From positions 1 through 17,740 of the forward strand of contig JACRKZ010000137.1 of the NCBI GenBank assembly GCA_016235455.1: a DNA stretch of 17,740 nt. The letters run 5' to 3'. The DNA comes from Armatimonadota bacterium. GTDB lineage: Bacteria > Armatimonadota > UBA10988. Shown piece after piece: positions 150-13,253 of this stretch. The notes under the pieces are model-generated. The model did no database searches. It was not told where the DNA came from and saw nothing but the letters and a program-made list of their open reading frames with translations. Each line of letters opens with the position of its first letter. The first letter of the stretch is position 1. The translations under genes and the position numbers were made by a program.

Positions 150-1211
150 ATGTCCGAGCCGCCGTCGCTGGTTCCTTACCATTCGCTGGGTCTTGCTGGC
201 GAGACGCCTATCGCGGTGCCCGTCAACGCCTACTTCCATGCGCCGTCGCCCGACGAGTCGCGCCCGTGGCCCCACGAGCCCGACACGTACCAGTACCACA
301 CCGACCAGGCCTTTCTTGTCGACCAGGTCACGCTGACCGGCCACCCGTCGGTGAGCTTTGGTGTGCGGGAAATCGTGCCGCCGCCGCTCATGCCGGTGAT
401 CGCGGTGGACGCCATGTATACGGCGCCCGGCACCTGGGTGGCCAAGGCCACGGTGTGCATCTACTGGGGCCGCACGCCCTTGGAGCCGCCGGACTCGCCC
501 ACCGAGAACATGACGGTGTTGTGGCCGATGACTGTCGCCATCCACATCAACGAGGACGGCGAGTGGTCGTGCGATTACTCCAACCCCAATCTGGAGAACT
601 GCGAGAGCTGCGGCACGTGCCTGTCGGAGCCGCACATCGGCGGCCTTAAGCCGTCGACGCTGACGCCTCGCCCGTTTGGCCCGTCGGCCGGTGACCCCGT
701 GGTGCCGGGCACCGGCGCCGAGGACTACCGCCCCGCGGCCGACCTGACGGTCTACTGTGAGCTGAGCGAGCCGTTTGAGTTTCGCCGGAGCTGGGTCAGC
801 AACCTGGCCATCGGCGAGTATGGGTCGCCCGGCCTGGCCAAGGGCTGGGTGCATGGTTGGGACCTGCTCATCCAGGAGGCCGAGAGCACGGCCACCTGGA
901 AGCCGCTCGACCTGGTCATGCCTGCGGGTCAGTTCTGGACGCTGACACCGGTGCTCGACAACCAGGGCGTGCCGACGGGCGCGTTCGATCTGCCGGCGGG
1001 CAGCCAGTTCCAGGCCACCGGCACACCCAGCGCCACGGCGGGCTTGTGGGACGAGATCACGCTGTTGTTCCGCGACCAGACGACCTGGCGCTTCGAGTGG
1101 CTGGCAGCTACGACGCGCAGGCCCGGCTGGCGAGCATCGCCGACAGCCATGGCCGGCAGGTGCGCTACACCCAGGAAGTGCTTGTCGGCGACGACTACAG
1201 CGGCAATCTGA
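150..1211 (+). CDS. N-terminal part of RHS repeat protein (unknown N-terminal region plus DUF6531-like domain); real coding frame runs to ~1097, then frameshifts
   Basis: ATG at 150 follows a purine-rich RBS GAGAGGGGA (132-140). Encodes GDPVVPGTG..DL..FEFRRSWVS..GLAKGWVHGWD (690-863), the pattern of the DUF6531 domain that precedes RHS repeats. After ...RDQTTWRFE (1097) the frame reads as nonsense and the RHS sequence continues in the -1 frame. Confidence 0.75.
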   Translation: MSEPPSLVPYHSLGLAGETPIAVPVNAYFHAPSPDESRPWPHEPDTYQYHTDQAFLVDQVTLTGHPSVSFGVREIVPPPLMPVIAVDAMYTAPGTWVAKATVCIYWGRTPLEPPDSPTENMTVLWPMTVAIHINEDGEWSCDYSNPNLENCESCGTCLSEPHIGGLKPSTLTPRPFGPSAGDPVVPGTGAEDYRPAADLTVYCELSEPFEFRRSWVSNLAIGEYGSPGLAKGWVHGWDLLIQEAESTATWKPLDLVMPAGQFWTLTPVLDNQGVPTGAFDLPAGSQFQATGTPSATAGLWDEITLLFRDQTTWRFEWLAATTRRPGWRASPTAMAGRCATPRKCLSATTTAAI

Positions 1212-4200
1212 CCGCACTGACGGGCGTGTCGCAGATCGTGCCGGTGGACGAGACGCAGCCTCTGCCGCGCTGGACCTATGGCTGGATGGAGGTGCCGGTC
1301 AGCGAATCCGCCGAGTACGACACGGACACGCACGGGTCCGGAAGCGGCTATGGGCCCTGGACGGAGACGCTGCTGCTGCTGACCAGCATCACGACGCCCA
1401 GCCCGAGCGGCGGGGGCGAGTCCACGGCGCGTCTGCGTTGGCTCGATGAGGTGTACAAGGTTGCTGAGACCGTCGATGCCAATGGCATCACCACCCTCTA
1501 TGCCTACGGCAACCAGCAACTGCTCACGGCAGTCATGGATGCCGACTCCAACCTGCTCCAGCAGGTTGCCCGCACGTTCGACAGCCGTGGCGTGCTAACC
1601 CATTCCGGTCTGCCCGGCTCGCCGTCGTTCATCTACGGCGACAGCGCTAACCCGAGCAAAGTCACCCGTATCGACTACCCGGACGGCCGGCACGAGGTGA
1701 TGACCTACGACTCCCACGGCAACCTGGTCAGCCAGACCGACGCGCGCGGCACCGTGATCGAGAACACCTGGGACTACACCAACTTCGCCTTTGGTCGCCT
1801 CACCCAGGTCACGCGCACGCCCGATGGCGGCCCGACACGTGTTGTCGCGGCATACACCTACGACGAGCCCAGCGGCCTGGTCCTTACCGCGACGACGCTG
1901 GAGCCCGGCACCACTGATGGCTCCACGGTGACCGTCAGCTACACCTACGACGATCTGGGCAACGTGCTCACCGTCGCCACGCCGGGCAACAACGCCGCCA
2001 CGACGCTGACCACGACCTACGAGTATGAGACCGACGGCACCTACACCACGACCGCCAAGGTCGGCCAGCCGATCAAGGTCAGTTGCCCCGGCACCTGTGC
2101 GCGGCACTACCGCTACGACGCGCGGGGCAATCGCACGCTGTACACCGACGCGCTGGGCAACACCTGGGAGACGGTCTACAACCTGGCTGACCAGACCATC
2201 GTCAGTTACGAGCCGGCCACGGGCCAGCAGGGCACGGGCCGCGCGCGGCGGGTGATGACCTACGCCTGGACCGGCGGGCCGCAGACTGAGTTGACGGTCT
2301 ACGACGAAGCCGGCAACGTCGTCCAGCACATCAACACCGACTATGGCGCCGAAGGCGAGACACTGGCCGTGAGCGGCGGCACCGAGCCGGTGGCCTACGC
2401 CTACGATGGATTGTACCGCGTGGTCACGCTGACCGATGGGAACGGCAACGTCACGCGCTACGCCTACGACAGCAACGACCGGCTGGCCTTGACGCGCTAC
2501 CCCGGCGCGACGGCCGACACCGGCGCGGACACCCTCCGCCAGACCAGCTACGACCTGGCCGGGCGGCTGCTCCAGCGCATCGACGGCAACAACCTGACCT
2601 GCAACTTCGCCTACAACGAGGCCGGCGGCGCGCTGACCAATGTGTCCTACCCGACGCAGTCGGCCTACAATGTCACTTACGGCCATGACACGTTGGGCCG
2701 AGTGACCAGCATGAGCGACGCGCAGGGCACCATCGCCACGACCTACGACGACCTGGGCAACCCGCTAACGGTGACCACCACCTATACCGGCCTAGACCCG
2801 CAGGTGGTGGAGTACACCTACTACCCCAACGGCCAACGCGCCAGCATGAACACGCCGGGCGGGCTGTTTGAGTATGAGTACAGCGTCAACGGGCAGATGA
2901 CCAGCCTCGACGGCCCGGCCGGGACCGCGAGCTGGACCTGGCTGGACAACCAGCAACTCGGCGCGCGGACGCTGCCGTGTGGCGCGTGGTCGGAGTTCAC
3001 CTACCTGCCCAATGGCCGGCTGTCGACGCTGACCAACAAGGACGATCAGGGCGCGGTGATGAGCCGCTACCTGGACCTCCAGTATCGCGGCACGGGCGAC
3101 CTTCAGCATTGGGAGGCGCAGGTGACGGGCTCGACCAGCCACTCGGGCGACACGGACTACGCCTACGACCTGCGGCGCGAGCTGACCGGCGAGACCTCCG
3201 AGCGCAACGGCGGCTACGCGGACGCGTATGCCTACGACAACGCGGGCAACCCGACCAGTTGGCGCGGCGCGACGCGGACGTTCAACAGCGACAACCAGGA
3301 GACCACCGGCGCCAACTGGACCTACGACGGCAACGGCAACCCGACCAGCTATGGCGGCACCACCTGCACCTATGATGTGGCCAATCACCTAACGGGCTTT
3401 GGCAGCGGGTTCACGGCGGGCTATCGTGGCGATGGGTTGCGGGCCTGGCAGCAGTCGGGTACGACGCGGAAGTACTACGTGTACGACGGCTGGCGGCCGG
3501 TGTGTGAGCTGGACGACGAAGGCGCAGTGCTGCGAAGCTGGACGTTCGGAGCGGATGGGCTGGTGGCGGTCGGCTCTGAGCAGGCGTTGTGCGACTGGCA
3601 GGGGAACGCGGCGCACTGGTGGGACGGCTCTACCTGGACGTTGGGCGCGGTGCTCGGCGGGTACGGCGCCGCCGGCGCTGGGTACAAGTGGCGGCACGGG
3701 TACTTGGACTGCGGCGAGGACCTGATCCTGTGTACGTATCGGCATCTCGACCCGGCGCTGGGGCGATGGCTGACGCGCGACCCGATTGGGCACCGGGGTG
3801 GGATTGGGTTGTATGGGTATGTGAGTGACGGGCCGATCACCAACGGGGATTCAAAGGGCCTGGACGCGTGCGGAGCTGATGCCGAGTACCCGGGCCATCT
3901 CAAAATGACGGAATGGACTTGCGCCGACTGGTGCGCTGACAAGATCGCCAACGAGCGTTACCCATCAAGCATAGGCAAGGGCTGCGTTGGCGCGCTCGCC
4001 GGCTCAGGCTTCTCGATGGCGAAGTCGGCCTTGGGGAAGATCCTTGCGGCGGCGACGGCCGCCGAGGCGTTGGCGTTGGCCGCGGCATATGGTTTCGCCC
4101 TGGCGTACATCAGTAACGTGCTGATTGAGGGCTGGCAGTGCCGAGTCGACTGCGGCAATGCTGTGCGCCGAGGCAAGCCGCCCTGGGACTGCCCCTATCA

Positions 4201-4258
4201 CTTCGAGTACGTGCAGGAACCTACGTGGCCGGAGTACCCTCCCGGCTGCGGCCTCTGA
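1097..4258 (+). CDS. RHS/YD-repeat polymorphic toxin: repeat shell, RHS-associated core and variable C-terminal tip (main part of the frameshifted gene 150-4258)
   Basis: Many YD repeats (YDSHGNL, YDDLGNV, YDARGNR, YDGLYRV, YDLAGRL, YDNAGNP). Core motif RHLDPALGRWLTRDPIG...LYGYV...DSKGL is followed by a 131-aa divergent tip (3863-4258). The ORF-track start at 857 gives non-RHS sequence until 1097. Confidence 0.93.
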   Translation: MAGSYDAQARLASIADSHGRQVRYTQEVLVGDDYSGNLTALTGVSQIVPVDETQPLPRWTYGWMEVPVSESAEYDTDTHGSGSGYGPWTETLLLLTSITTPSPSGGGESTARLRWLDEVYKVAETVDANGITTLYAYGNQQLLTAVMDADSNLLQQVARTFDSRGVLTHSGLPGSPSFIYGDSANPSKVTRIDYPDGRHEVMTYDSHGNLVSQTDARGTVIENTWDYTNFAFGRLTQVTRTPDGGPTRVVAAYTYDEPSGLVLTATTLEPGTTDGSTVTVSYTYDDLGNVLTVATPGNNAATTLTTTYEYETDGTYTTTAKVGQPIKVSCPGTCARHYRYDARGNRTLYTDALGNTWETVYNLADQTIVSYEPATGQQGTGRARRVMTYAWTGGPQTELTVYDEAGNVVQHINTDYGAEGETLAVSGGTEPVAYAYDGLYRVVTLTDGNGNVTRYAYDSNDRLALTRYPGATADTGADTLRQTSYDLAGRLLQRIDGNNLTCNFAYNEAGGALTNVSYPTQSAYNVTYGHDTLGRVTSMSDAQGTIATTYDDLGNPLTVTTTYTGLDPQVVEYTYYPNGQRASMNTPGGLFEYEYSVNGQMTSLDGPAGTASWTWLDNQQLGARTLPCGAWSEFTYLPNGRLSTLTNKDDQGAVMSRYLDLQYRGTGDLQHWEAQVTGSTSHSGDTDYAYDLRRELTGETSERNGGYADAYAYDNAGNPTSWRGATRTFNSDNQETTGANWTYDGNGNPTSYGGTTCTYDVANHLTGFGSGFTAGYRGDGLRAWQQSGTTRKYYVYDGWRPVCELDDEGAVLRSWTFGADGLVAVGSEQALCDWQGNAAHWWDGSTWTLGAVLGGYGAAGAGYKWRHGYLDCGEDLILCTYRHLDPALGRWLTRDPIGHRGGIGLYGYVSDGPITNGDSKGLDACGADAEYPGHLKMTEWTCADWCADKIANERYPSSIGKGCVGALAGSGFSMAKSALGKILAAATAAEALALAAAYGFALAYISNVLIEGWQCRVDCGNAVRRGKPPWDCPYHFEYVQEPTWPEYPPGCGL
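2572..3823 (+). repeat. Copy 1 of a ~1.25-kb direct repeat (RHS 3' core)
   Basis: Starts CCAGCGCATCGACGGCAACAACCTGACC and aligns to 4682-5933 at a constant offset of 2110 nt at both ends. Identity is high (roughly 90% by eye, not computed) and many differences are synonymous. Confidence 0.97.
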
Positions 4259-4294
4259 CGCAGTTCGCAGATGATGGGTCGCAGGAGGCATCAG

Positions 4295-4666
4295 ATGGAA
4301 GTCGTGGTCGGGCTGCTGATAGGCGAGTTGGCAGGCGAGCTGCTTCTGTGCGGTGGGCAGCTTGTCGACTTCGGGGTATTGGGGGTTGTCGGGGGCCTGT
4401 GCGCGCCGTTTGCGCCACGCCGGATGGGGTGGCTCGCATCGCCGCCCGGCACCGCAGCGCGCTCCGCCGCCCTGGGCGGAATCATCTACACGTCGGTTGT
4501 GGGCCGTGCGCGTATGGTCGCCGAGCGATGGGACGGCATCAGCCTCAACCCAGGGTTGGCGCTCTGCACGGTGCTGTGCGTGGTCACGTACTACGCCGTG
4601 GGCCGCTGGCGCCAGCGGTGGGCCGAGGAGCAGGGAGGAAGGACCAATGGGGACGCAACCCCGTAG
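4295..4666 (+). CDS. Small membrane protein, candidate immunity protein for RHS tip 1 (123 aa)
   Basis: AGGAGG (4283-4288) lies 6 nt before ATG 4295. The protein has several hydrophobic Gly/Leu/Val segments and sits directly downstream of the toxin stop, the canonical immunity position. Function is inferred from position only. Confidence 0.7.
   Translation: MEVVVGLLIGELAGELLLCGGQLVDFGVLGVVGGLCAPFAPRRMGWLASPPGTAARSAALGGIIYTSVVGRARMVAERWDGISLNPGLALCTVLCVVTYYAVGRWRQRWAEEQGGRTNGDATP
4647..4664 (+). repeat. Junction motif copy 1: ATGGGGACGCAACCCCGT (GGGG/CCCC hairpin)
   Basis: Lies just upstream of the start of RHS homology at 4682. Shares ATGGGGACGCA with 7220-7230 and GGGGACGC..CCCCGT with 7057-7071. 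Confidence 0.55.
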
Positions 4667-6356
4667 GCCCGTCCACGGCCGCCAGCGCATCGACGGCAAC
4701 AACCTGACCTGCAACTTCGCCTACAACGAGGCCGGCGGCGCGCTGACCAATGTGTCCTACCCGACGCAGTCGTCCTACAATGTGACATACGGCCACGATG
4801 CGTTGGGCCGAGTGACCAGCATGAGCGACGCGCAGGGCACCATCGCCACGACCTACGACGACCTGGGCAACCCGCTGACGGTGACCACCACCTATACCGG
4901 CCTAGACCCGCAGGTGGTGGAGTACACCTACTACCCCAACGGCCAGCGCGCGAGCATGAACACGCCGGGCGGGCTGTTTGAGTATGAGTACAGCGTCAAT
5001 GGCGCCATGACCCAGCTCGATGGCCCCGCCGGGACAGCGAGCTGGACTTGGCTGGACAACCAGCAGCTCGGCGCGCGGACGCTGCCGTGTGGGGCGTGGT
5101 CGGAGTTCACGTATCTGCCCAATGGGCGGCTGTCGACGCTGACCAACAAGGACGACCAGGGCAACGTCATGAGCCGCTACCTGGACCTCCAGTATCGCGG
5201 CACGGGCGACCTGGCGCATTGGGAGGCGCGGGTGACGGGCAGCACGTCGCACAGCGGCGAGACCGACTACACCTACGACCTGCGGCGCGAGCTGACCGGC
5301 GAGACCTCCGAACGCAACGGCGGCTACAGCGATGCGTATGCCTACGACAACGCGGGCAACCCGACCAGTTGGCGCGGAGCGACGCGGACGTTCAACAGCA
5401 ACAACCAGGAGACGACGGGCGCGAACTGGACCTACGACGGCAACGGCAACCCGACCAGCTATGGCGGCACCACCTGCACCTACGACGTGGCCAACCATCT
5501 GACGGCGCACGGCAGCGAGTTCACGGCGGGCTATCGCGGCGACGGGCTGCGGGCCTGGCAGCAGTCGGGCGGCACGCGGAAGTACTACGTGTACGACGGC
5601 TGGCGGCCGGTGTGTGAGCTGGATAGCTCGGGCACGGTGCTGCGGTCTTGGACGTTCGGCGCCGATGGGCTGGTGGCGTGTGGGTCGGAGCAGGCGCTGT
5701 GTGACTGGCAGGGGAACGCGGCGCACTGGTGGAACGGCTCGACGTGGACGCTGGGCGCGGTGCTTGGTGGCTATGGCGCTGCGGGCTCGGGGTACAAGTG
5801 GCTGCACGGGTACCTGGACTGCGGCGAGGACCTGATCCTGTGCGCGTACCGGCATCTGGACCCGGCGCTTGGGCGGTGGTTGACGAGGGATCCGATTGGG
5901 TACCGGGGTGGCGTCGGGCTGTATGGTTATGTGGGCAATAGTCCGTCATCCCGCATCGACCCCAGCGGGCGGTGCGGCGGCGGGGTGCGACAAGTCCCAG
6001 GTCTGCATGGCTTCCTGGGCTACGGGAACTACTGTGGCCCGTATGTCGGCGACAGAACCTTCCAGGCGCCGGCGCTGGATCCGGTGGACTCGTGCTGCAA
6101 GGCTCACGATTGGTGCTTCCAGCATGTTCCCGGTGGTTGCGGAGGCGCGTGTCAGCTCTACAAGTCGGAATGCGCGAAGTGCACCGAAACCCTAGCGCGA
6201 TGTCTGCTCACAGCCGACTGCGGGCTCAGCGAAAACGCCGGGTCGTGCGAGTTCTACCGGCAAGTCGCCATCTACATCTACGGCGTGCCAGCTGGCGTAG
6301 TACTTGGTGGGGTGATAGACACGCCGCCACTGAACCCGCCTGGTGCGATGGTCTGA
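4647..6356 (+). CDS. Orphan RHS cassette: truncated RHS core fused to a secretory phospholipase A2-type toxin tip (569 aa from ATG 4647)
   Basis: From 4682 it duplicates 2572-3823 in frame. Core motif GRWLTRDPIG...DPSGR. The tip has YGNYCG (Ca-binding loop, 6021-6038) and DPVDSCCKAHDWC (catalytic His-Asp, 6078-6116). In-frame ATG 4647 has GGAGG at 4634-4638. The ORF-track start at 4353 lies inside the immunity gene in another frame. Confidence 0.9.
   Translation: MGTQPRRPVHGRQRIDGNNLTCNFAYNEAGGALTNVSYPTQSSYNVTYGHDALGRVTSMSDAQGTIATTYDDLGNPLTVTTTYTGLDPQVVEYTYYPNGQRASMNTPGGLFEYEYSVNGAMTQLDGPAGTASWTWLDNQQLGARTLPCGAWSEFTYLPNGRLSTLTNKDDQGNVMSRYLDLQYRGTGDLAHWEARVTGSTSHSGETDYTYDLRRELTGETSERNGGYSDAYAYDNAGNPTSWRGATRTFNSNNQETTGANWTYDGNGNPTSYGGTTCTYDVANHLTAHGSEFTAGYRGDGLRAWQQSGGTRKYYVYDGWRPVCELDSSGTVLRSWTFGADGLVACGSEQALCDWQGNAAHWWNGSTWTLGAVLGGYGAAGSGYKWLHGYLDCGEDLILCAYRHLDPALGRWLTRDPIGYRGGVGLYGYVGNSPSSRIDPSGRCGGGVRQVPGLHGFLGYGNYCGPYVGDRTFQAPALDPVDSCCKAHDWCFQHVPGGCGGACQLYKSECAKCTETLARCLLTADCGLSENAGSCEFYRQVAIYIYGVPAGVVLGGVIDTPPLNPPGAMV
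4682..5933 (+). repeat. Copy 2 of the ~1.25-kb direct repeat (RHS 3' core)
   Basis: See copy 1. Homology ends at the LYGYV codons, just before the cleavage motif and variable tip. Confidence 0.97.
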
Positions 6357-6476
6357 GATGGCGTACCAGCGCTCTGGGTGAGCGCAACACCGCCGCTCAG
6401 GAGCGTGGACCACCGCCAGCCAGACGCATGCGCCCTGTCAGCGGTGTTGGGCGACGGACAAGACAGGAGGCTAGCG

Positions 6477-6971
6477 ATGAGCTGTCGAGGGCGACTCGTG
6501 GCGTCAGCGGTACCGCTGTTCTCAGGCGCTGGCGCGCTCCTGAGTCTGGCTGTAGCCAGCACCTGGGGTCCAGCGAACCAAGCTGCCTGCCGCACGACCC
6601 TGGCTATCATTCTGGTGTTCCACATCGCGGAGTCTCTGGTCTACGCGGAGTGGTACTTCCGGGCCTGCGGGCCTGCCCCGTCACGTGTTACTGACGAGTG
6701 GTCCAGGCCAGTTCTCACGGCAGCCGGCGTGTGTGCGACCGGCGCGGCCTTCGGAACTCTGCTGGCGATGGTGCTGTTTAAAGCACAAGGCATGGAAGGT
6801 ACGGTCGATCTGTTTGTCGCGTTGGGTATGGCGATGCCCGGTGGCATCGAAGGCTTGGTGCTCGGCCTGCTGTACCACGCATGGCAGCGCGCGCGTCTGT
6901 ACGCCGAGCCCACGGTCGGACCGAAGACAGAGGACACACAACTGGTTTGTGATGACGACAAGCGGACATGA
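6477..6971 (+). CDS. Membrane protein with about 4 hydrophobic helices, candidate immunity protein for the PLA2 tip (164 aa)
   Basis: AGGAGG (6465-6470) lies 6 nt before ATG 6477. Hydrophobic segments include PLFSGAGALLSLAVA, TLAIILVFHIAESLVY, GAAFGTLLAMVLF and LFVALGMAMPGGIEGLVLGLLY. It is the next gene after the toxin tip. Confidence 0.72.
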   Translation: MSCRGRLVASAVPLFSGAGALLSLAVASTWGPANQAACRTTLAIILVFHIAESLVYAEWYFRACGPAPSRVTDEWSRPVLTAAGVCATGAAFGTLLAMVLFKAQGMEGTVDLFVALGMAMPGGIEGLVLGLLYHAWQRARLYAEPTVGPKTEDTQLVCDDDKRT

Positions 6972-7056
6972 CAGCCACCGCCGAGGTTGATCAGCCGTTC
7001 AAGGTCAGTTGCCCCGCGCGCTGTACACCGACGCCCTGAGCAACACCTGGGGTGAG

Positions 7057-7071
7057 GGGGACGCTCCCCGT
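7057..7071 (+). repeat. Junction motif copy 2: GGGGACGCTCCCCGT (GGGGA/TCCCC hairpin)
   Basis: Lies between RHS fragments 7019-7051 and 7083-7198. Confidence 0.55.
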
Positions 7072-7219
7072 TTCTTGTGGCCTACACCCACGACACGTTG
7101 GGCCGAGTGACCAGCATGAGCGACGCGCAGGGCACCATCGCCACGACCTACGACGACCTGGGCTACCCGAGGACGGTTATCAGCCCCTACACGGGCCTGC
7201 TAGAAGGCAATAGGAGGCG

Positions 7220-7230
7220 ATGGGGACGCA
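7220..7230 (+). repeat. Junction motif copy 3: ATGGGGACGCA
   Basis: Lies between RHS fragments 7083-7198 and 7238-7324 and is preceded by AGGAGG (7212-7217). Confidence 0.55.
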
Positions 7231-7955
7231 GCACACTTGGCCGGCCGGCTGCTCCAGCGCATCGACGACAGCAAGAACCTGACCTGCAACTTCGCCTACA
7301 ACGAGGCCGGCGGCGCGCTGACCAGCGTCAGGCCGGCGCCTCCCGCGGCTCGCCAAGCCTTGGCAACCCGGCCAGGTTGAAAACGACCGCACCGTCGTGG
7401 ACAGCAGATGGTCCGTCGGCCACTGGCGGGCTCGGAGTCGGTCGGGTCGGGCACCGATGAACACGCCAGCAAGCCGGTTCAGGCCATGACGAGTCGGTTT
7501 GCCCCCAAATCAGCCGCTCGGCGCCGGATCGACCAACGTGAATGGGCAACGACAGATCGGCTCTGTGAGCCACGTAGCGCCGATCGATGCGCCCACTCGT
7601 TGTACATTCACCACGCGCAGAGCCGCTCCAGGAGCCGAGCGGCGCTATCCCTAGCTAGTTAGTTGGTCGAGAGACTCAGGATCAAGCTATTGGGCAAGCC
7701 TGTGGCGAAGAGCCAAAGCGAAGGAACAGCCAGCCACCTGCCTGTGGTACCAGGCAGGGATCATGCCGCACTCGCGGTGCTCCCTTCACCTTGGCCCTGC
7801 GTGACCCCGAGCAGCACACTGGGCCAGTGACGTTTGCCTACCAGGCCGACATCGACGGCAAGCTCCGTCGCGCTCTTAGGCGCGCCGGCCATGGTGTGGC
7901 TCGTAGCAGGCCCCGCGCTCGGCTATGGGGCCGGCAGTGGGTCGGCGTGGCGCGC

Positions 7956-10094: not shown

Positions 10095-13000
10095 TCAATA
10101 CAACGTCCGCGCATGCGGCGAGGCGAAGTTCGGCAGCGCCCGCAGCGCCACCACCTTGTCGGCGATAAGCCCCTGGCCGGTGCGGTTGTCCACGCGGCCG
10201 GCGACCATCACCACCGGGTTGTGCAGCGCGGCCTGGCCGTCGCGCTGATAGACATCGCGGAAGCAGGTGATGGGGATGACGCCGCTCTCGTCCTCCAGAT
10301 CGAAGAACAGCGTGTTGCGCCCGGTCTTGGTCGGCGGCCGGTGCGGGCGGATGACCAGGCCGCAGACGCGGTAGGCCGTGCCCGGCTCGGAATGAGGCAC
10401 GCGCGCCACGGGCACCGCGCCATACCGCGCTACTTTGCGCCGCGCCAGCTCCACGGGATGGCAGGTGGGCGAGTAGCCCAGCACGTCCCATTCGCCAGCC
10501 ACCTTGTCCCAGTCGCTCAGGTCGGCCAGGCGTGGGTCGGGCGGCGGATCGACGTGGCCCAGGTCGAGGCTCAGGCCGTCGTCTTGGGGCAGGCGCGGCA
10601 GTTCCTGAATCTGCCACAGCAACATGCGCCGGTGCAGCCGCTCGCCGCGCGGGCCCTGCAGGTGGTCGCAAGCGCCCGACCGCACCAGCGCCATGAGCTT
10701 GTCGCGCGGCAGCCCCGCGGCGCGTTGCAGGTCGCCGATGGTGCGGTGCGGCCGCGTGGCCACGATCTGCTCGGCGGTCTCGACGCTGATGCGCTTGATC
10801 TGCGCCAGACCCATGCGAATGGTGTCGCCCCAGCCCTCGGTGCGCGCCGGCCCGTGGTTGATATCGGGCGACTCGATGCGCACGCCGCGCCGCCGCACCA
10901 CGCCGATCAGCGTATGCACCGGGTAGAAGCCCATGGGCTGGTTGCGCAGCAGACCGGCGAAGTACTCCGCCGGATGATGCTCGATGAGGTAGACGCTGCG
11001 GTAGGCCGTGTCGGCAAAGGCTGCGGCATGGCTCTCGCAGAAGCCGTAGCCGGCGAACCCGCGCACCGCATCGAACAGTGAAGCGGCGGTCTCGGCAGCC
11101 AGTCCGTTGGCCTCCGCCTTGGCACAGAACTGCCGACCCAACTCGGCCATGGCATCGCCGCTGCGGTAGTGGCTGATGCTACGGCGCAGCAGGTCGGCTT
11201 CGGCCGCCGTGAGCCCCGCGGCGATGCGCGCCACCTCGATGACCTGCTCCTGATAGACCAGCACGCCGTAGGTCTTGGAGAGCACCGGCTCCAGCTCGGG
11301 CAGCCAGTACTCGATCTTCTCGCGCCCATGACGCCGCGCCAGATAGTGCTCGGGCATGCCGGTCACCATCGGGCCCGGCCGAATGAGCGCCAGCGCCGCC
11401 ACCAGCGGCTCGAAGCAGTCGCAGCCCAGCCGCGCATGGAGCGAGCGCTGCGCCGGACTGCCCACCTCAAATGCGCCATAGGTCTCGCTGCGCCGCAGCC
11501 GGGCGTAGGTGGCTTCGTTGTCCAGCGGCACATCGAACACCTCAAACTCGGGCTGGCCGACGCGGATGAAGCGGTTGGCATCCTCCAGCACGCTGAACAT
11601 GGGCAGGCACAGACAGTCGAACTTGGTCAGCCGGTCCTCGACGTCTTCCTTGTCGCCCTGGATGACCGGGAACGGCTGCCAGCCACCCTCCTCCGTCTCC
11701 CACAGCCGCGCGGCATGTTGCACGCCGACCAGGTCGGCCAACGGCGGGCTGGTGATGACCACGCCGCCCAGATGCGTGCCCAGGTTGCGCGGGATGCCGG
11801 CCAGCTTGGGCAGCAGCGCGCGCAACTGCGCGAACCGCGATTCCGCCCAGGCGCTGCCGCGGATATCGGGGTACTTGGCCTCGGCGCCGTCGATCTGGTC
11901 GGCGCCCAGGTGCGGCAGCGACTTGGCCAGCGCGTCGATCTCCGCCGGCGGCAGGGCCAGCGCGCGGCCCACATCGCGCACGGCGCTGCGCGCGTGGTAG
12001 CGCACGTAGGTGCCCGTCATGGCCACATGGCCCGGGCCGTAGCGCTTGAGGATGTAGTCGAGCACCTTGTCGCGCCCATCGCGCGCGAAGTCGACGTCGA
12101 TATCGGGCAGGCTCTCGGTGCGCTCCTCGTTGAGGAACCGCGCCGGCGTGATGTCGCGGCTGTAAGCATCGACATTGGCGATACGCAGCGCATAGCAGAC
12201 GACGCTGCCCGCGGCGCTGCCGCGCCCCGCGCAGCGGATGTCGTGCGCGCGCGCCCAGCGACAGACATCCCACACCAGCAGGAAATAGCCGTCCAGCCCC
12301 AGCTTGTGGATGATGCGCAGCTCGTCGGCCACACGCGGCGCGACCTTGGCCCACATGCCCCGCGGATAGCGCGTCTTGACCCCTTCGTGCACCAGCCGCG
12401 TGAGCAGCGCGTGCTGCTCGGCCTCCGGCGCGCCGTTGAACGACGGCACATAGCGGTCGCGGCTCAGCCCCAGTTCGTCGCAGGCCTCGGCCACCTTGGT
12501 CGTCAGCCGCAGCGCCTCGGGCAGGTCCTCAAAGGTCCGCGCCATCTCGTCGCCGCTCTGCAGGTACTGCATGTCGTTGGCCGGCCGGCCGGCGAACGGG
12601 GTATCGACAGTCTGCAGGTAACGCGTGCAGGTCAGCAGGTCATAGACCGGGAAGTCCTCGCGCACGGCATACCGCACATCGCCCGTGGCCACGTAGCGCA
12701 GGCCCAGTCGCCGCGCCAGCTCCACCTGTTGCAGGCTCAGCCGGCGGTCGCCAGCGCAGCCCAGCCGCTGGATCTCCACCAGCACCGAGCGCGCACCATA
12801 CAGCTCGCACAACCGCCGTAGCAACTGCTCCGCGCCAGCCTCGTCGCGCGCGCGCAGCCGCCGCGCCAGCTCACCCCGCCGCCCGCCGGTGAGAACGAAA
12901 CTGCCCTCGCCAGCCCACGCCTCCAGATCGGCCCAGCGCGCCAACGGCGCACCCCGCGCGCCGGCCAGATGCACCCGCGAAGTGAGCTGACACAGCCGCC

Positions 13001-13253
13001 GATAGCCCTCGCGTCGGCGGCACACGAACGTCAACGGACCGATCTCCGTGGTCAGCGTGCCCCCGACAATCGGTTTGACGCCCACCTTGCCCGCCGCCAT
13101 CTCGAACCGTGGCAACGCGCAGAGGTAATCCTCCTCGGTCAGCGCCAGAGCCGTCTGACCCAACGCCGCCGCCTGCTCCAGGTAGCGCTCGGGATGGCCC
13201 GCGCCACGCAGGAAGCTGTAGCAACTCGTGGCTCGCAGATGCACGTAATCCAT
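10095..13253 (-). CDS. dnaE2: DNA polymerase III alpha-family, error-prone DnaE2-type polymerase (1052 aa)
   Basis: Motifs YSFLRGA, GRGSAAGSVVCYAL, PDIDVDF (two catalytic Asp), KFD (third Asp), YGFCESHAAAFA, NQPMGFY and an OB fold with LEDESG. YSFLxGA, ESHA, QPMGFY, a degenerate PHP domain and the short C-terminus favour DnaE2 over replicative DnaE1. Confidence 0.9.
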   Translation of the reverse strand: MDYVHLRATSCYSFLRGAGHPERYLEQAAALGQTALALTEEDYLCALPRFEMAAGKVGVKPIVGGTLTTEIGPLTFVCRRREGYRRLCQLTSRVHLAGARGAPLARWADLEAWAGEGSFVLTGGRRGELARRLRARDEAGAEQLLRRLCELYGARSVLVEIQRLGCAGDRRLSLQQVELARRLGLRYVATGDVRYAVREDFPVYDLLTCTRYLQTVDTPFAGRPANDMQYLQSGDEMARTFEDLPEALRLTTKVAEACDELGLSRDRYVPSFNGAPEAEQHALLTRLVHEGVKTRYPRGMWAKVAPRVADELRIIHKLGLDGYFLLVWDVCRWARAHDIRCAGRGSAAGSVVCYALRIANVDAYSRDITPARFLNEERTESLPDIDVDFARDGRDKVLDYILKRYGPGHVAMTGTYVRYHARSAVRDVGRALALPPAEIDALAKSLPHLGADQIDGAEAKYPDIRGSAWAESRFAQLRALLPKLAGIPRNLGTHLGGVVITSPPLADLVGVQHAARLWETEEGGWQPFPVIQGDKEDVEDRLTKFDCLCLPMFSVLEDANRFIRVGQPEFEVFDVPLDNEATYARLRRSETYGAFEVGSPAQRSLHARLGCDCFEPLVAALALIRPGPMVTGMPEHYLARRHGREKIEYWLPELEPVLSKTYGVLVYQEQVIEVARIAAGLTAAEADLLRRSISHYRSGDAMAELGRQFCAKAEANGLAAETAASLFDAVRGFAGYGFCESHAAAFADTAYRSVYLIEHHPAEYFAGLLRNQPMGFYPVHTLIGVVRRRGVRIESPDINHGPARTEGWGDTIRMGLAQIKRISVETAEQIVATRPHRTIGDLQRAAGLPRDKLMALVRSGACDHLQGPRGERLHRRMLLWQIQELPRLPQDDGLSLDLGHVDPPPDPRLADLSDWDKVAGEWDVLGYSPTCHPVELARRKVARYGAVPVARVPHSEPGTAYRVCGLVIRPHRPPTKTGRNTLFFDLEDESGVIPITCFRDVYQRDGQAALHNPVVMVAGRVDNRTGQGLIADKVVALRALPNFASPHARTLY

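Follow-up and report, generated by a model that had tools for sequence, protein, structure and literature searches.

RHS arrays, in which toxin cassettes follow one another along the chromosome, are usually explained by homologous recombination alone. In this work we focused on one such array, carried by a 17,740-bp contig (C103) of the 6.5-Mb draft genome G000 (69% G+C) of a member of the Armatimonadota; this whole contig is called the window below. Three truncated RHS fragments of the array are each preceded by the same eight-letter word, GGGGACGC, which raises the question of what this word is and whether it took part in building the array. A first interpretation made from the letters alone, hereafter the sequence-only reading, proposed a hairpin signal used by an enzyme to shuffle toxin cassettes. 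We rather consider it probable, with considerable reserve, that the three copies belong, as members or as remnants, to a low-copy family of hairpins resembling repetitive extragenic palindromes (REPs) and related to elements found upstream of genes similar to those of REP-associated tyrosine transposases (RAYTs). Their REP-type identity, that is, their spread by a RAYT now or in the past, we infer from this relatedness.

An exact count confirmed that GGGGACGC occurs three times in the window, at positions 4649, 7057 and 7222, always on the + strand, and nowhere else. The copies go with short non-RHS gaps (4667-4681, 7052-7075 and 7199-7234) and lie 5 to 33 nt before RHS homology resumes, as judged by self-BLAST and alignments. 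The sequence-only reading had likewise placed the motif just upstream of the resuming homology, which holds to within 33 nt, although two of its resumption points (7083 and 7238) were a few bases off (7076 and 7235). Its statement that the motif is a feature of the junction spacers rather than of the RHS sequence was also correct, the full-length RHS open reading frame (ORF) at 857-4258 containing none. The placement is extragenic, as copy 1 touches only the end of a candidate immunity gene and copies 2 and 3 lie among non-coding scraps.

Copy 1 (4649-4664, + strand) reads GGGGACGCAACCCCGT and can form a REP-like hairpin, with a 6-nt loop on a 6-bp stem that includes one G-U pair. It is overlapped by the end of the first candidate immunity gene (last six codons and TAG stop, 4664-4666). 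Copy 2 (7057-7072, + strand) reads GGGGACGCTCCCCGTT followed by TCTTGTG, with a 5-bp stem and a loop of 3-4 nt; it lies 86 nt past the second candidate immunity gene and is the sole terminator-like site on the + strand between 4000 and 7800. Copy 3 (7220-7230, + strand) reads ATGGGGACGCA and represents the 5' half only, with no CCCC arm. As had been noticed earlier, copies 1 and 3 have ATGGGGACGCA in common and copies 1 and 2 GGGGACGC-(AA/T)-CCCCGT. A GGAGG does precede copies 1 and 3 (4634-4638 and 7213-7217), but its spacing from the ATG differs (8 versus 2 nt), and the ATG of copy 3 does not share the frame of the RHS scrap downstream. We rejected the idea that copies 2 and 3 are diverged RHS sequence, since in our own reading of the alignments they show only scattered matches to the main gene, with the GACGC words off-register. 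Logan contigs of public runs bridge copy 1 (X1 record 1, 4100-4711) and copy 2 (X1 record 6, 6431-7121; X3 record 13, 6431-7125) with 0 differences, at least one of these runs possibly being the sample from which the contig came; copy 3 is spanned by none of the Logan pieces listed.

According to the sequence-only reading, a few copies of the bare 8-mer were to be expected by chance in a GC-rich window. This was the case in dinucleotide shuffles of the window, where 2.25 copies are expected and at least three were obtained in 74 out of 200. The genome itself gives a much lower figure, however, with 88 copies over both strands of the 6,515,286 bp searched, or 0.24 per window. This count is in line with the 94.6 copies expected from a maximal-order Markov model, as A seldom follows a run of G in this genome. 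As the case illustrates, a chance expectation drawn from dinucleotide shuffles of one window alone can be ten times too high. The gaps between the window copies (165 and 2408 bp) are the first and third smallest among all inter-copy gaps genome-wide. In a look-elsewhere test on the 2388 distinct 8-mers of 4634-7240, 17 occur at least three times on one strand; GGGGACGC ranks third of the 2388, with a Poisson tail of 9e-7, and the two words above it encode the YD-repeat motif. The clustering of GGGGACGC, with three copies in 2.6 kb, is thus real and not due to chance.

Related elements are found elsewhere in G000, and the family can be written GGGGACG(C/T)-N1-2-CCC-(C/T)-GT. The regular expression GGGGACG[CT]N{1,2}CCC[CT]?GT has six matches in the genome, namely window copies 1 and 2, an inverted pair on contig C25, a site on contig C111 and a site on contig C168, the last of which lies inside a coding sequence and was set aside as chance. 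The reversed pattern gave two matches, and 20 permuted cores gave 0 to 6 (median 1). The pair on C25 is the only inverted one; it is located between a stop codon and the start of the next gene and begins 6 nt past the stop. The 11-mer ATGGGGACGCA also occurs on contig C130, at the start codon of an unrelated membrane-protein ORF, and this occurrence was likewise attributed to chance. The genome scan suggested by the sequence-only reading, GGGGAC-N2-5-(T/A)CCCC, returned just 6 matches at 5 sites and did not bear that reading out.

The C111 site links the motif to a RAYT-like gene. The sequence GGGGACGCACCCTGTTCTTGAC precedes this gene (G000:C111:4146-4814) and holds one of the 85 non-window copies of GGGGACGC, starting at -53 from the ATG. 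By our own arithmetic, the odds that one of these 85 copies falls within 100 nt upstream of any of the three Y1 transposase genes of the genome are about 0.004. No other GGGGAC exists within 800 nt on either side; where the sequence-only reading had suggested looking for Y1 genes flanked by the motif, this gene shows a single copy on its 5' side and none within 800 nt downstream. The three Y1 genes, the only ones in G000 to match PF01797, are on contigs C159, C129 and C111; the first is IS200-like and the other two are RAYT-like. The products of the C111 and C129 genes match PF01797 above its cut-off, and their best NCBIfam model is the REP-associated tyrosine transposase, with 62.6 and 62.5 bits respectively, under the cut-off of 80.

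The C129 gene with its repeats is a normal, classical REP/RAYT pair. Three copies of GGTCCCTGACACCGTTT (4115-4184) are found upstream of the gene, the nearest REP copy starting at -54 from the ATG, the same offset as that of the C111 element. This REP is written GGTCCCTGACACC(GTTT), and its 17-mer and 13-mer are present in 41 and 55 copies genome-wide. It is absent from the window, save for one chance match with two mismatches. A survey of the regions upstream of 14 homologous Y1 genes, from the genus of G000 and four related genera, revealed GGGGAC at -48 to -57 in six, GGGAC in two more and GGGTC at -51 to -53 in three, and 12 of the 14 also have TTGAC, at -35 to -37. The same arrangement, TTTCTTG included, is seen in window copy 2 (GGGGACGCTCCCCGTTTCTTG).

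RHS arrays with orphan fragments are also present in the related genomes G001, G002 and G004. Together these arrays have 13 orphan junctions, and none has the bare 8-mer within 90 nt. In the 7.5 Mb of G002, the exact 13-mer of copy 1, GGGGACGCAACCC, occurs twice. One occurrence lies in an RHS array, 17 nt past the stop of an unrelated immunity ORF and 245 nt before the next orphan, and a shorter GGGGACG begins on the last base of the stop codon of that immunity ORF; the other is intergenic, with a 5' flank like that of the C111 element. G001 contains 24 copies of GGGGAC(G/T)GACCC, four of which, along with inverted-pair variants, bracket an RHS island, and an element of the same type precedes a RAYT homologue. 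In G004 the hairpin CCAGGGCAACGCCCTGG stands on both sides of an IS200/RAYT-like gene, with two copies on each side. Five RHS orphan cassettes on five contigs of this genome have a common leader of about 170 nt (L020:2740-2925, L023, L024, L025 and G004:C81), and at least two of the leaders open with CCAGGGCAACGCCCTGG. Besides the REP hairpin, the G004 leader contains a TTGACA box and, immediately ahead of RHS position q795-805, AAGGGGAGT; with these features the cassettes look like stand-alone, promoter-bearing units. Thus, RAYT-linked hairpins, of a different type in each genus, are found beside RHS cassettes in four genera. We consider this a pattern worth testing, to which no statistic is attached, as paralogous copies are not independent and the cases were found by looking at RHS loci.

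Two further searches concerned the locus itself. A DNA search with positions 4271-4800 in six genomes of the bacterial family returned the window itself only, and a search of genome contigs and metagenome contigs with the orphan RHS core returned no related locus. Related proteins in public records carry the name Fimbriimonadaceae. The closest outside relative is P0004, a 352-aa protein from a 1682-bp contig with 72% identity over 41% of the query; it begins MTDAQSTISTAYD and jumps straight to LRRQL, which resembles an internal deletion between two YD repeats such as those seen in the window scraps. More remotely, contig C1 of G208, an unrelated genome of the phylum, carries three copies of a repeat of about 110 nt (L089-L091) that includes the exact 16-mer GGGGACGCAACCCCGT with TGGGGTT after it; these loci have no RHS or Y1 gene nearby.

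The array in which the three window copies are located is the single RHS locus of the G000 assembly. It has the features of RHS/YD-repeat polymorphic toxins: RHS repeats, a conserved core end, a variable tip, a small downstream ORF and 5'-truncated cores. The full-length RHS ORF (857-4258, + strand; 1133 aa from a TTG at 857) matches PF05593 (RHS_repeat) with E=1.6e-23. From the ORF list and translations, its core extends to about 3823, with toxin 1, the C-terminal tip, taking up about 3824 to 4258. The N-terminal part of this gene seems to run on in another frame, in an ORF at 15-1211 that ends '...TTWRFEW', the RHS frame (857-4258) taking over with 'SYDAQARLASIADSHGRQVRY'; this points to a frameshift, or else to an error of assembly, near 1100-1200. 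Downstream, a 131-aa hydrophobic ORF without a Pfam family (4271-4666, + strand) is likely to be the immunity gene for the first toxin tip.

The orphan RHS ORF that follows (4647-6356, + strand; 569 aa) has an in-frame ATG at 4647 preceded 8 nt upstream by the GGAGG, and matches PF05593 with E=1.5e-10. A public record, P0001, is 100% identical to it over 569 aa, and the public gene call starts at the same place. By self-BLAST, the orphan core (4682-5933) corresponds to 2572-3823 of the main gene with 89.9% identity, and both genes read LDPALGRWLTRDPIG, the core end with its DPxG motif, before their tips diverge. The orphan tip (5934-6356) is Cys-rich and weakly phospholipase-A2-like (PF00068, E=2e-4, 22.2 bits, under the cut-off of 32.1). 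It is followed by a second candidate immunity gene, also hydrophobic (6478-6971, + strand; ATG at 6478 after AGGAGG). Beyond it only RHS core scraps remain, all on the + strand: two within 6977-7051 (6977-7016, equivalent to main 2051-2090, and 7015-7051, equivalent to main 2132-2168), one at 7076-7198 (main 2675-2793, 90% identity) and one at 7235-7324 (main 2553-2639, 93% identity). As the sequence-only reading had stated, the junction at 6977 is without the motif and no recombinase is encoded in the window: a family search of its 12 ORFs found none, the contig stopping at 17,740 bp with the genes beyond it unseen. Neither a Y1 nor a tyrosine recombinase is present on C103, and PF00589 matches in the genome are confined to contigs C66 and C135. 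Further along the window, an ORF for a DnaE-type polymerase III alpha subunit (10095-13253, - strand; PHP, NTPase, finger, HhH and OB domains) adjoins a 140-aa ORF without a family, and the two could form an error-prone cassette of the dnaE2 type.

Past the junction, the orphan core agrees with the main one at about 98% of positions for the first 300 nt and at about 88% further on. This step points to a boundary, left by crossover or gene conversion, near main position 2870 and fits a crossover within the cores, so that the array needs only homologous recombination. We therefore favour, on the strength of the step, a history in which the array would have been built by homologous recombination between RHS cores, with REP-like hairpins lodged in its non-coding spacers. 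Copy 1 sits at the 3' end of immunity gene 1, copy 2 follows immunity gene 2 and has the look of a small intrinsic terminator, and copy 3 is truncated and surrounded by decayed cassette remains. Each spacer is directly followed by the next RHS fragment, which gives the elements the appearance of junction markers. They would act, if at all, as hairpin terminators, protectors of RNA ends, passive passengers or deletion end-points, and the scraps around copies 2 and 3 may stem from deletions that ended at or between hairpins.

Several observations weigh against assigning the copies to a REP-like family. The fold energies, compared with shuffles, have z-scores of -1.15, +0.74 and +1.88, so that the hairpins are no more stable than shuffled sequence. 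The window copies are single and direct, with no inverted pair, and copy 3 lacks the 3' arm. The family numbers five credible copies plus the half-copy 3, versus tens to hundreds for classical REPs, and the sequence in common is short (14-20 nt). The pattern that gave the six matches was widened after the C111 site had been seen, only the test on the bare 8-mer being unbiased. Across the phylum, GGGGACGCN{1,2}CCCCGT was found in 41 of 401 genomes, mostly as single occurrences, the reversed control being scattered as singles as well, and none of 33 phylum loci has an RHS or Y1 gene within 1.5 kb. The C111 protein itself keeps the HUH motif (H-I-H) and reads R-H-V-E-R-N-P where 11 of the 14 homologues have a Tyr. 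That Tyr aligns with Y115 of 4er8_A, the E. coli TnpA_REP, given as the catalytic Tyr in PMC3479197, and C111 has His at this place. The C129 protein keeps the Tyr, but its REP is a different sequence. Two further homologues also depart from Tyr at this position, L049 with His and L040 with Phe; judging from these residues, the C111, L049 and L040 proteins may be inactive or domesticated copies. What the sequence-only reading had suggested as a REP-like, RAYT-related nature is thus supported in part, by the element at -53 of the C111 gene and by the RAYT-linked REPs of the relatives, and weakened by the ordinary folding and the few copies.

A further point against a REP-like family is that the 11-mer of copies 1 and 3 stands 35 versus 34 nt from the same RHS position, CCAGCGCATCGAC, which may reflect one junction multiplied by descent. 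The three copies would then go back to one ancient event of illegitimate joining, by which the DNA past an immunity gene was fused to RHS position ~2553-2572. The fused sequence would have been copied as homologous recombination between cores duplicated or exchanged the cassettes, and its likeness to REPs or RAYT flanks would be coincidental. We hold this to be unlikely, yet deserving of attention. Region 4647-4749 aligns by BLAST with 7220-7324 at 84.9% identity, copy 2 could be derived from copy 1 by an indel and a deletion of about 115 nt, and the RHS locus being single in G000 there is no independent junction for comparison; the five G004 orphans show, moreover, that a long conserved leader can pass by descent. 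A scar of this kind leaves unexplained, however, the 8-mer plus CCC at -53 of a RAYT-like gene, the inverted pair on C25 and the exact 13-mer that follows a non-homologous immunity gene in G002, which is of another genus, and copies 1 and 3 agree at only about half of the positions from the 11-mer to the RHS sequence. Even less support goes to a translation signal, in which GGAGG and ATGGGGACGCA would be the ribosome-binding site and start codon of an orphan RHS gene coupled to the immunity gene upstream. The in-frame ATG at 4647, 8 nt past the GGAGG and overlapping the end of immunity gene 1, and the public calls that begin the 569-aa ORF there agree with it. In copy 3, on the other hand, the GGAGG is only 2 nt from an out-of-frame ATG, copy 2 has neither GGAGG nor ATG, a shell deprived of its first 570 residues would probably not fold, and the copies on C111, C25 and in G002 are left without explanation; we regard this as very improbable. 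Simple recurrence of a GC-rich 8-mer could be argued from the dinucleotide shuffles, but the tenfold lower genome rate, the rank among 8-mers given above and the fact that the matches extend past the 8-mer make it barely credible.

The remaining explanation is that of the sequence-only reading, in which a RAYT or another HUH Y1 enzyme would act in trans, cutting and joining single-stranded DNA at the hairpins and thereby capturing, deleting or reshuffling cassettes. Copies 2 and 3 do have RHS fragments 0-21 nt away on either side, the element makes up nearly all of the non-RHS filler at copy 2, and the first orphan cassette is bracketed by the direct copies 1 and 2. In four genera RHS cassettes have RAYT-linked REPs next to them, of a type particular to each genus, and G000 has RAYT-like genes, among which that of C129 retains the Tyr; E. 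coli TnpA_REP cleaves REPs in vitro (PMC3479197). Against this, the RAYT-like gene that carries the motif has His for the catalytic Tyr, the REP of C129 differs and is missing from the window, the 6977 junction has no motif, and the G002 element is 245 nt away from the orphan start. Homologous recombination suffices for the array, and the folding no better than shuffles, the low copy number, the direct single copies, one of them a half, the few pattern matches and the lack of a recombinase on the contig all argue in the same direction. No circular or alternative joint was seen in the contigs of four runs, which cannot show rare ones. Three candidate joints (5933>4100, 7051>4682 and 5902>7236) were discarded as the main RHS gene or a contiguous related core cross-mapping to paralogous fragments. 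Runs X5 and X9 contain related RHS cores at 88-95% identity with the tips and immunity genes uncovered, and nothing is drawn from them. The enzyme-guided shuffling of cassettes is thus not supported, and we judge an active signal at this locus improbable. The broader proposal, that RAYT-cognate REPs mark RHS cassette edges in this bacterial family and take part in capture, deletion or exchange, through a RAYT in trans or as end-points, appears to us similarly doubtful.

The favoured reading, a low-copy family of REP-like hairpins, can be compared with known systems. It resembles the REP/REPIN-RAYT systems in its short GC-rich hairpins placed outside genes and right after stops, one of them beside a RAYT-like gene and one as an inverted pair (C25), and in a REP type that changes from genus to genus. 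It differs from them by its 5-6 copies per genome, its stem of 4-6 bp and the single, direct arrangement of the window copies; the 5' GTAG of the E. coli type is not seen as conserved here, and the adjacent RAYT-like protein is without the catalytic Tyr. For comparison, Bertels et al. 2017 (PMC5581495) give 57 REP copies for RAYT group 2, 140 for group 3 and 12-14 for groups 1 and 4.

The succession of a full RHS gene, its tip and immunity gene, a 5'-truncated core with another tip and immunity gene, and finally scraps is that of the orphan rhs-CT/immunity modules, from which the present array differs in that three fragments are preceded by the same short element. To our knowledge, a conserved non-RHS sequence at the 5' edge of orphans is not among the predictions of the model of C-terminal displacement and core recombination. 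Integron attC sites and recombinase-associated immunity arrays likewise have repeated signals at cassette boundaries, but there is no integrase on this contig and attC sites are far longer than the present motif. A RAYT-type system alongside a hypervariable antibacterial gene array is also known from the prochlorosin (lanthipeptide) arrays of marine picocyanobacteria, with which TnpA_REP is associated and for which a diversifying role has been proposed (bioRxiv 10.1101/2020.03.09.984088); its authors later added that there is no strong evidence for or against causation. There, the transposase genes are inside the arrays, whereas only hairpins are found in the array described here. Among the papers listed by a literature search, none links RAYT with Rhs in its title or abstract opening, to which this statement is confined, and the portion available of bioRxiv 10.1101/2024.07.17.603846 treats REP and Rhs separately.

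The recurring neighbourhood of REPs and RHS cassettes is, in our view, the part worth following up. Should the elements be passive, they would still be useful as markers of former cassette boundaries in decayed arrays. If, on the contrary, there is more to them than passive accumulation, they would link polymorphic toxins with domesticated single-strand transposases, which are usually studied apart, and would offer a testable handle on the gain and loss of toxin tips. An involvement of this kind, if true, would constitute a second route of polymorphic-toxin diversification beside homologous recombination from core to core.

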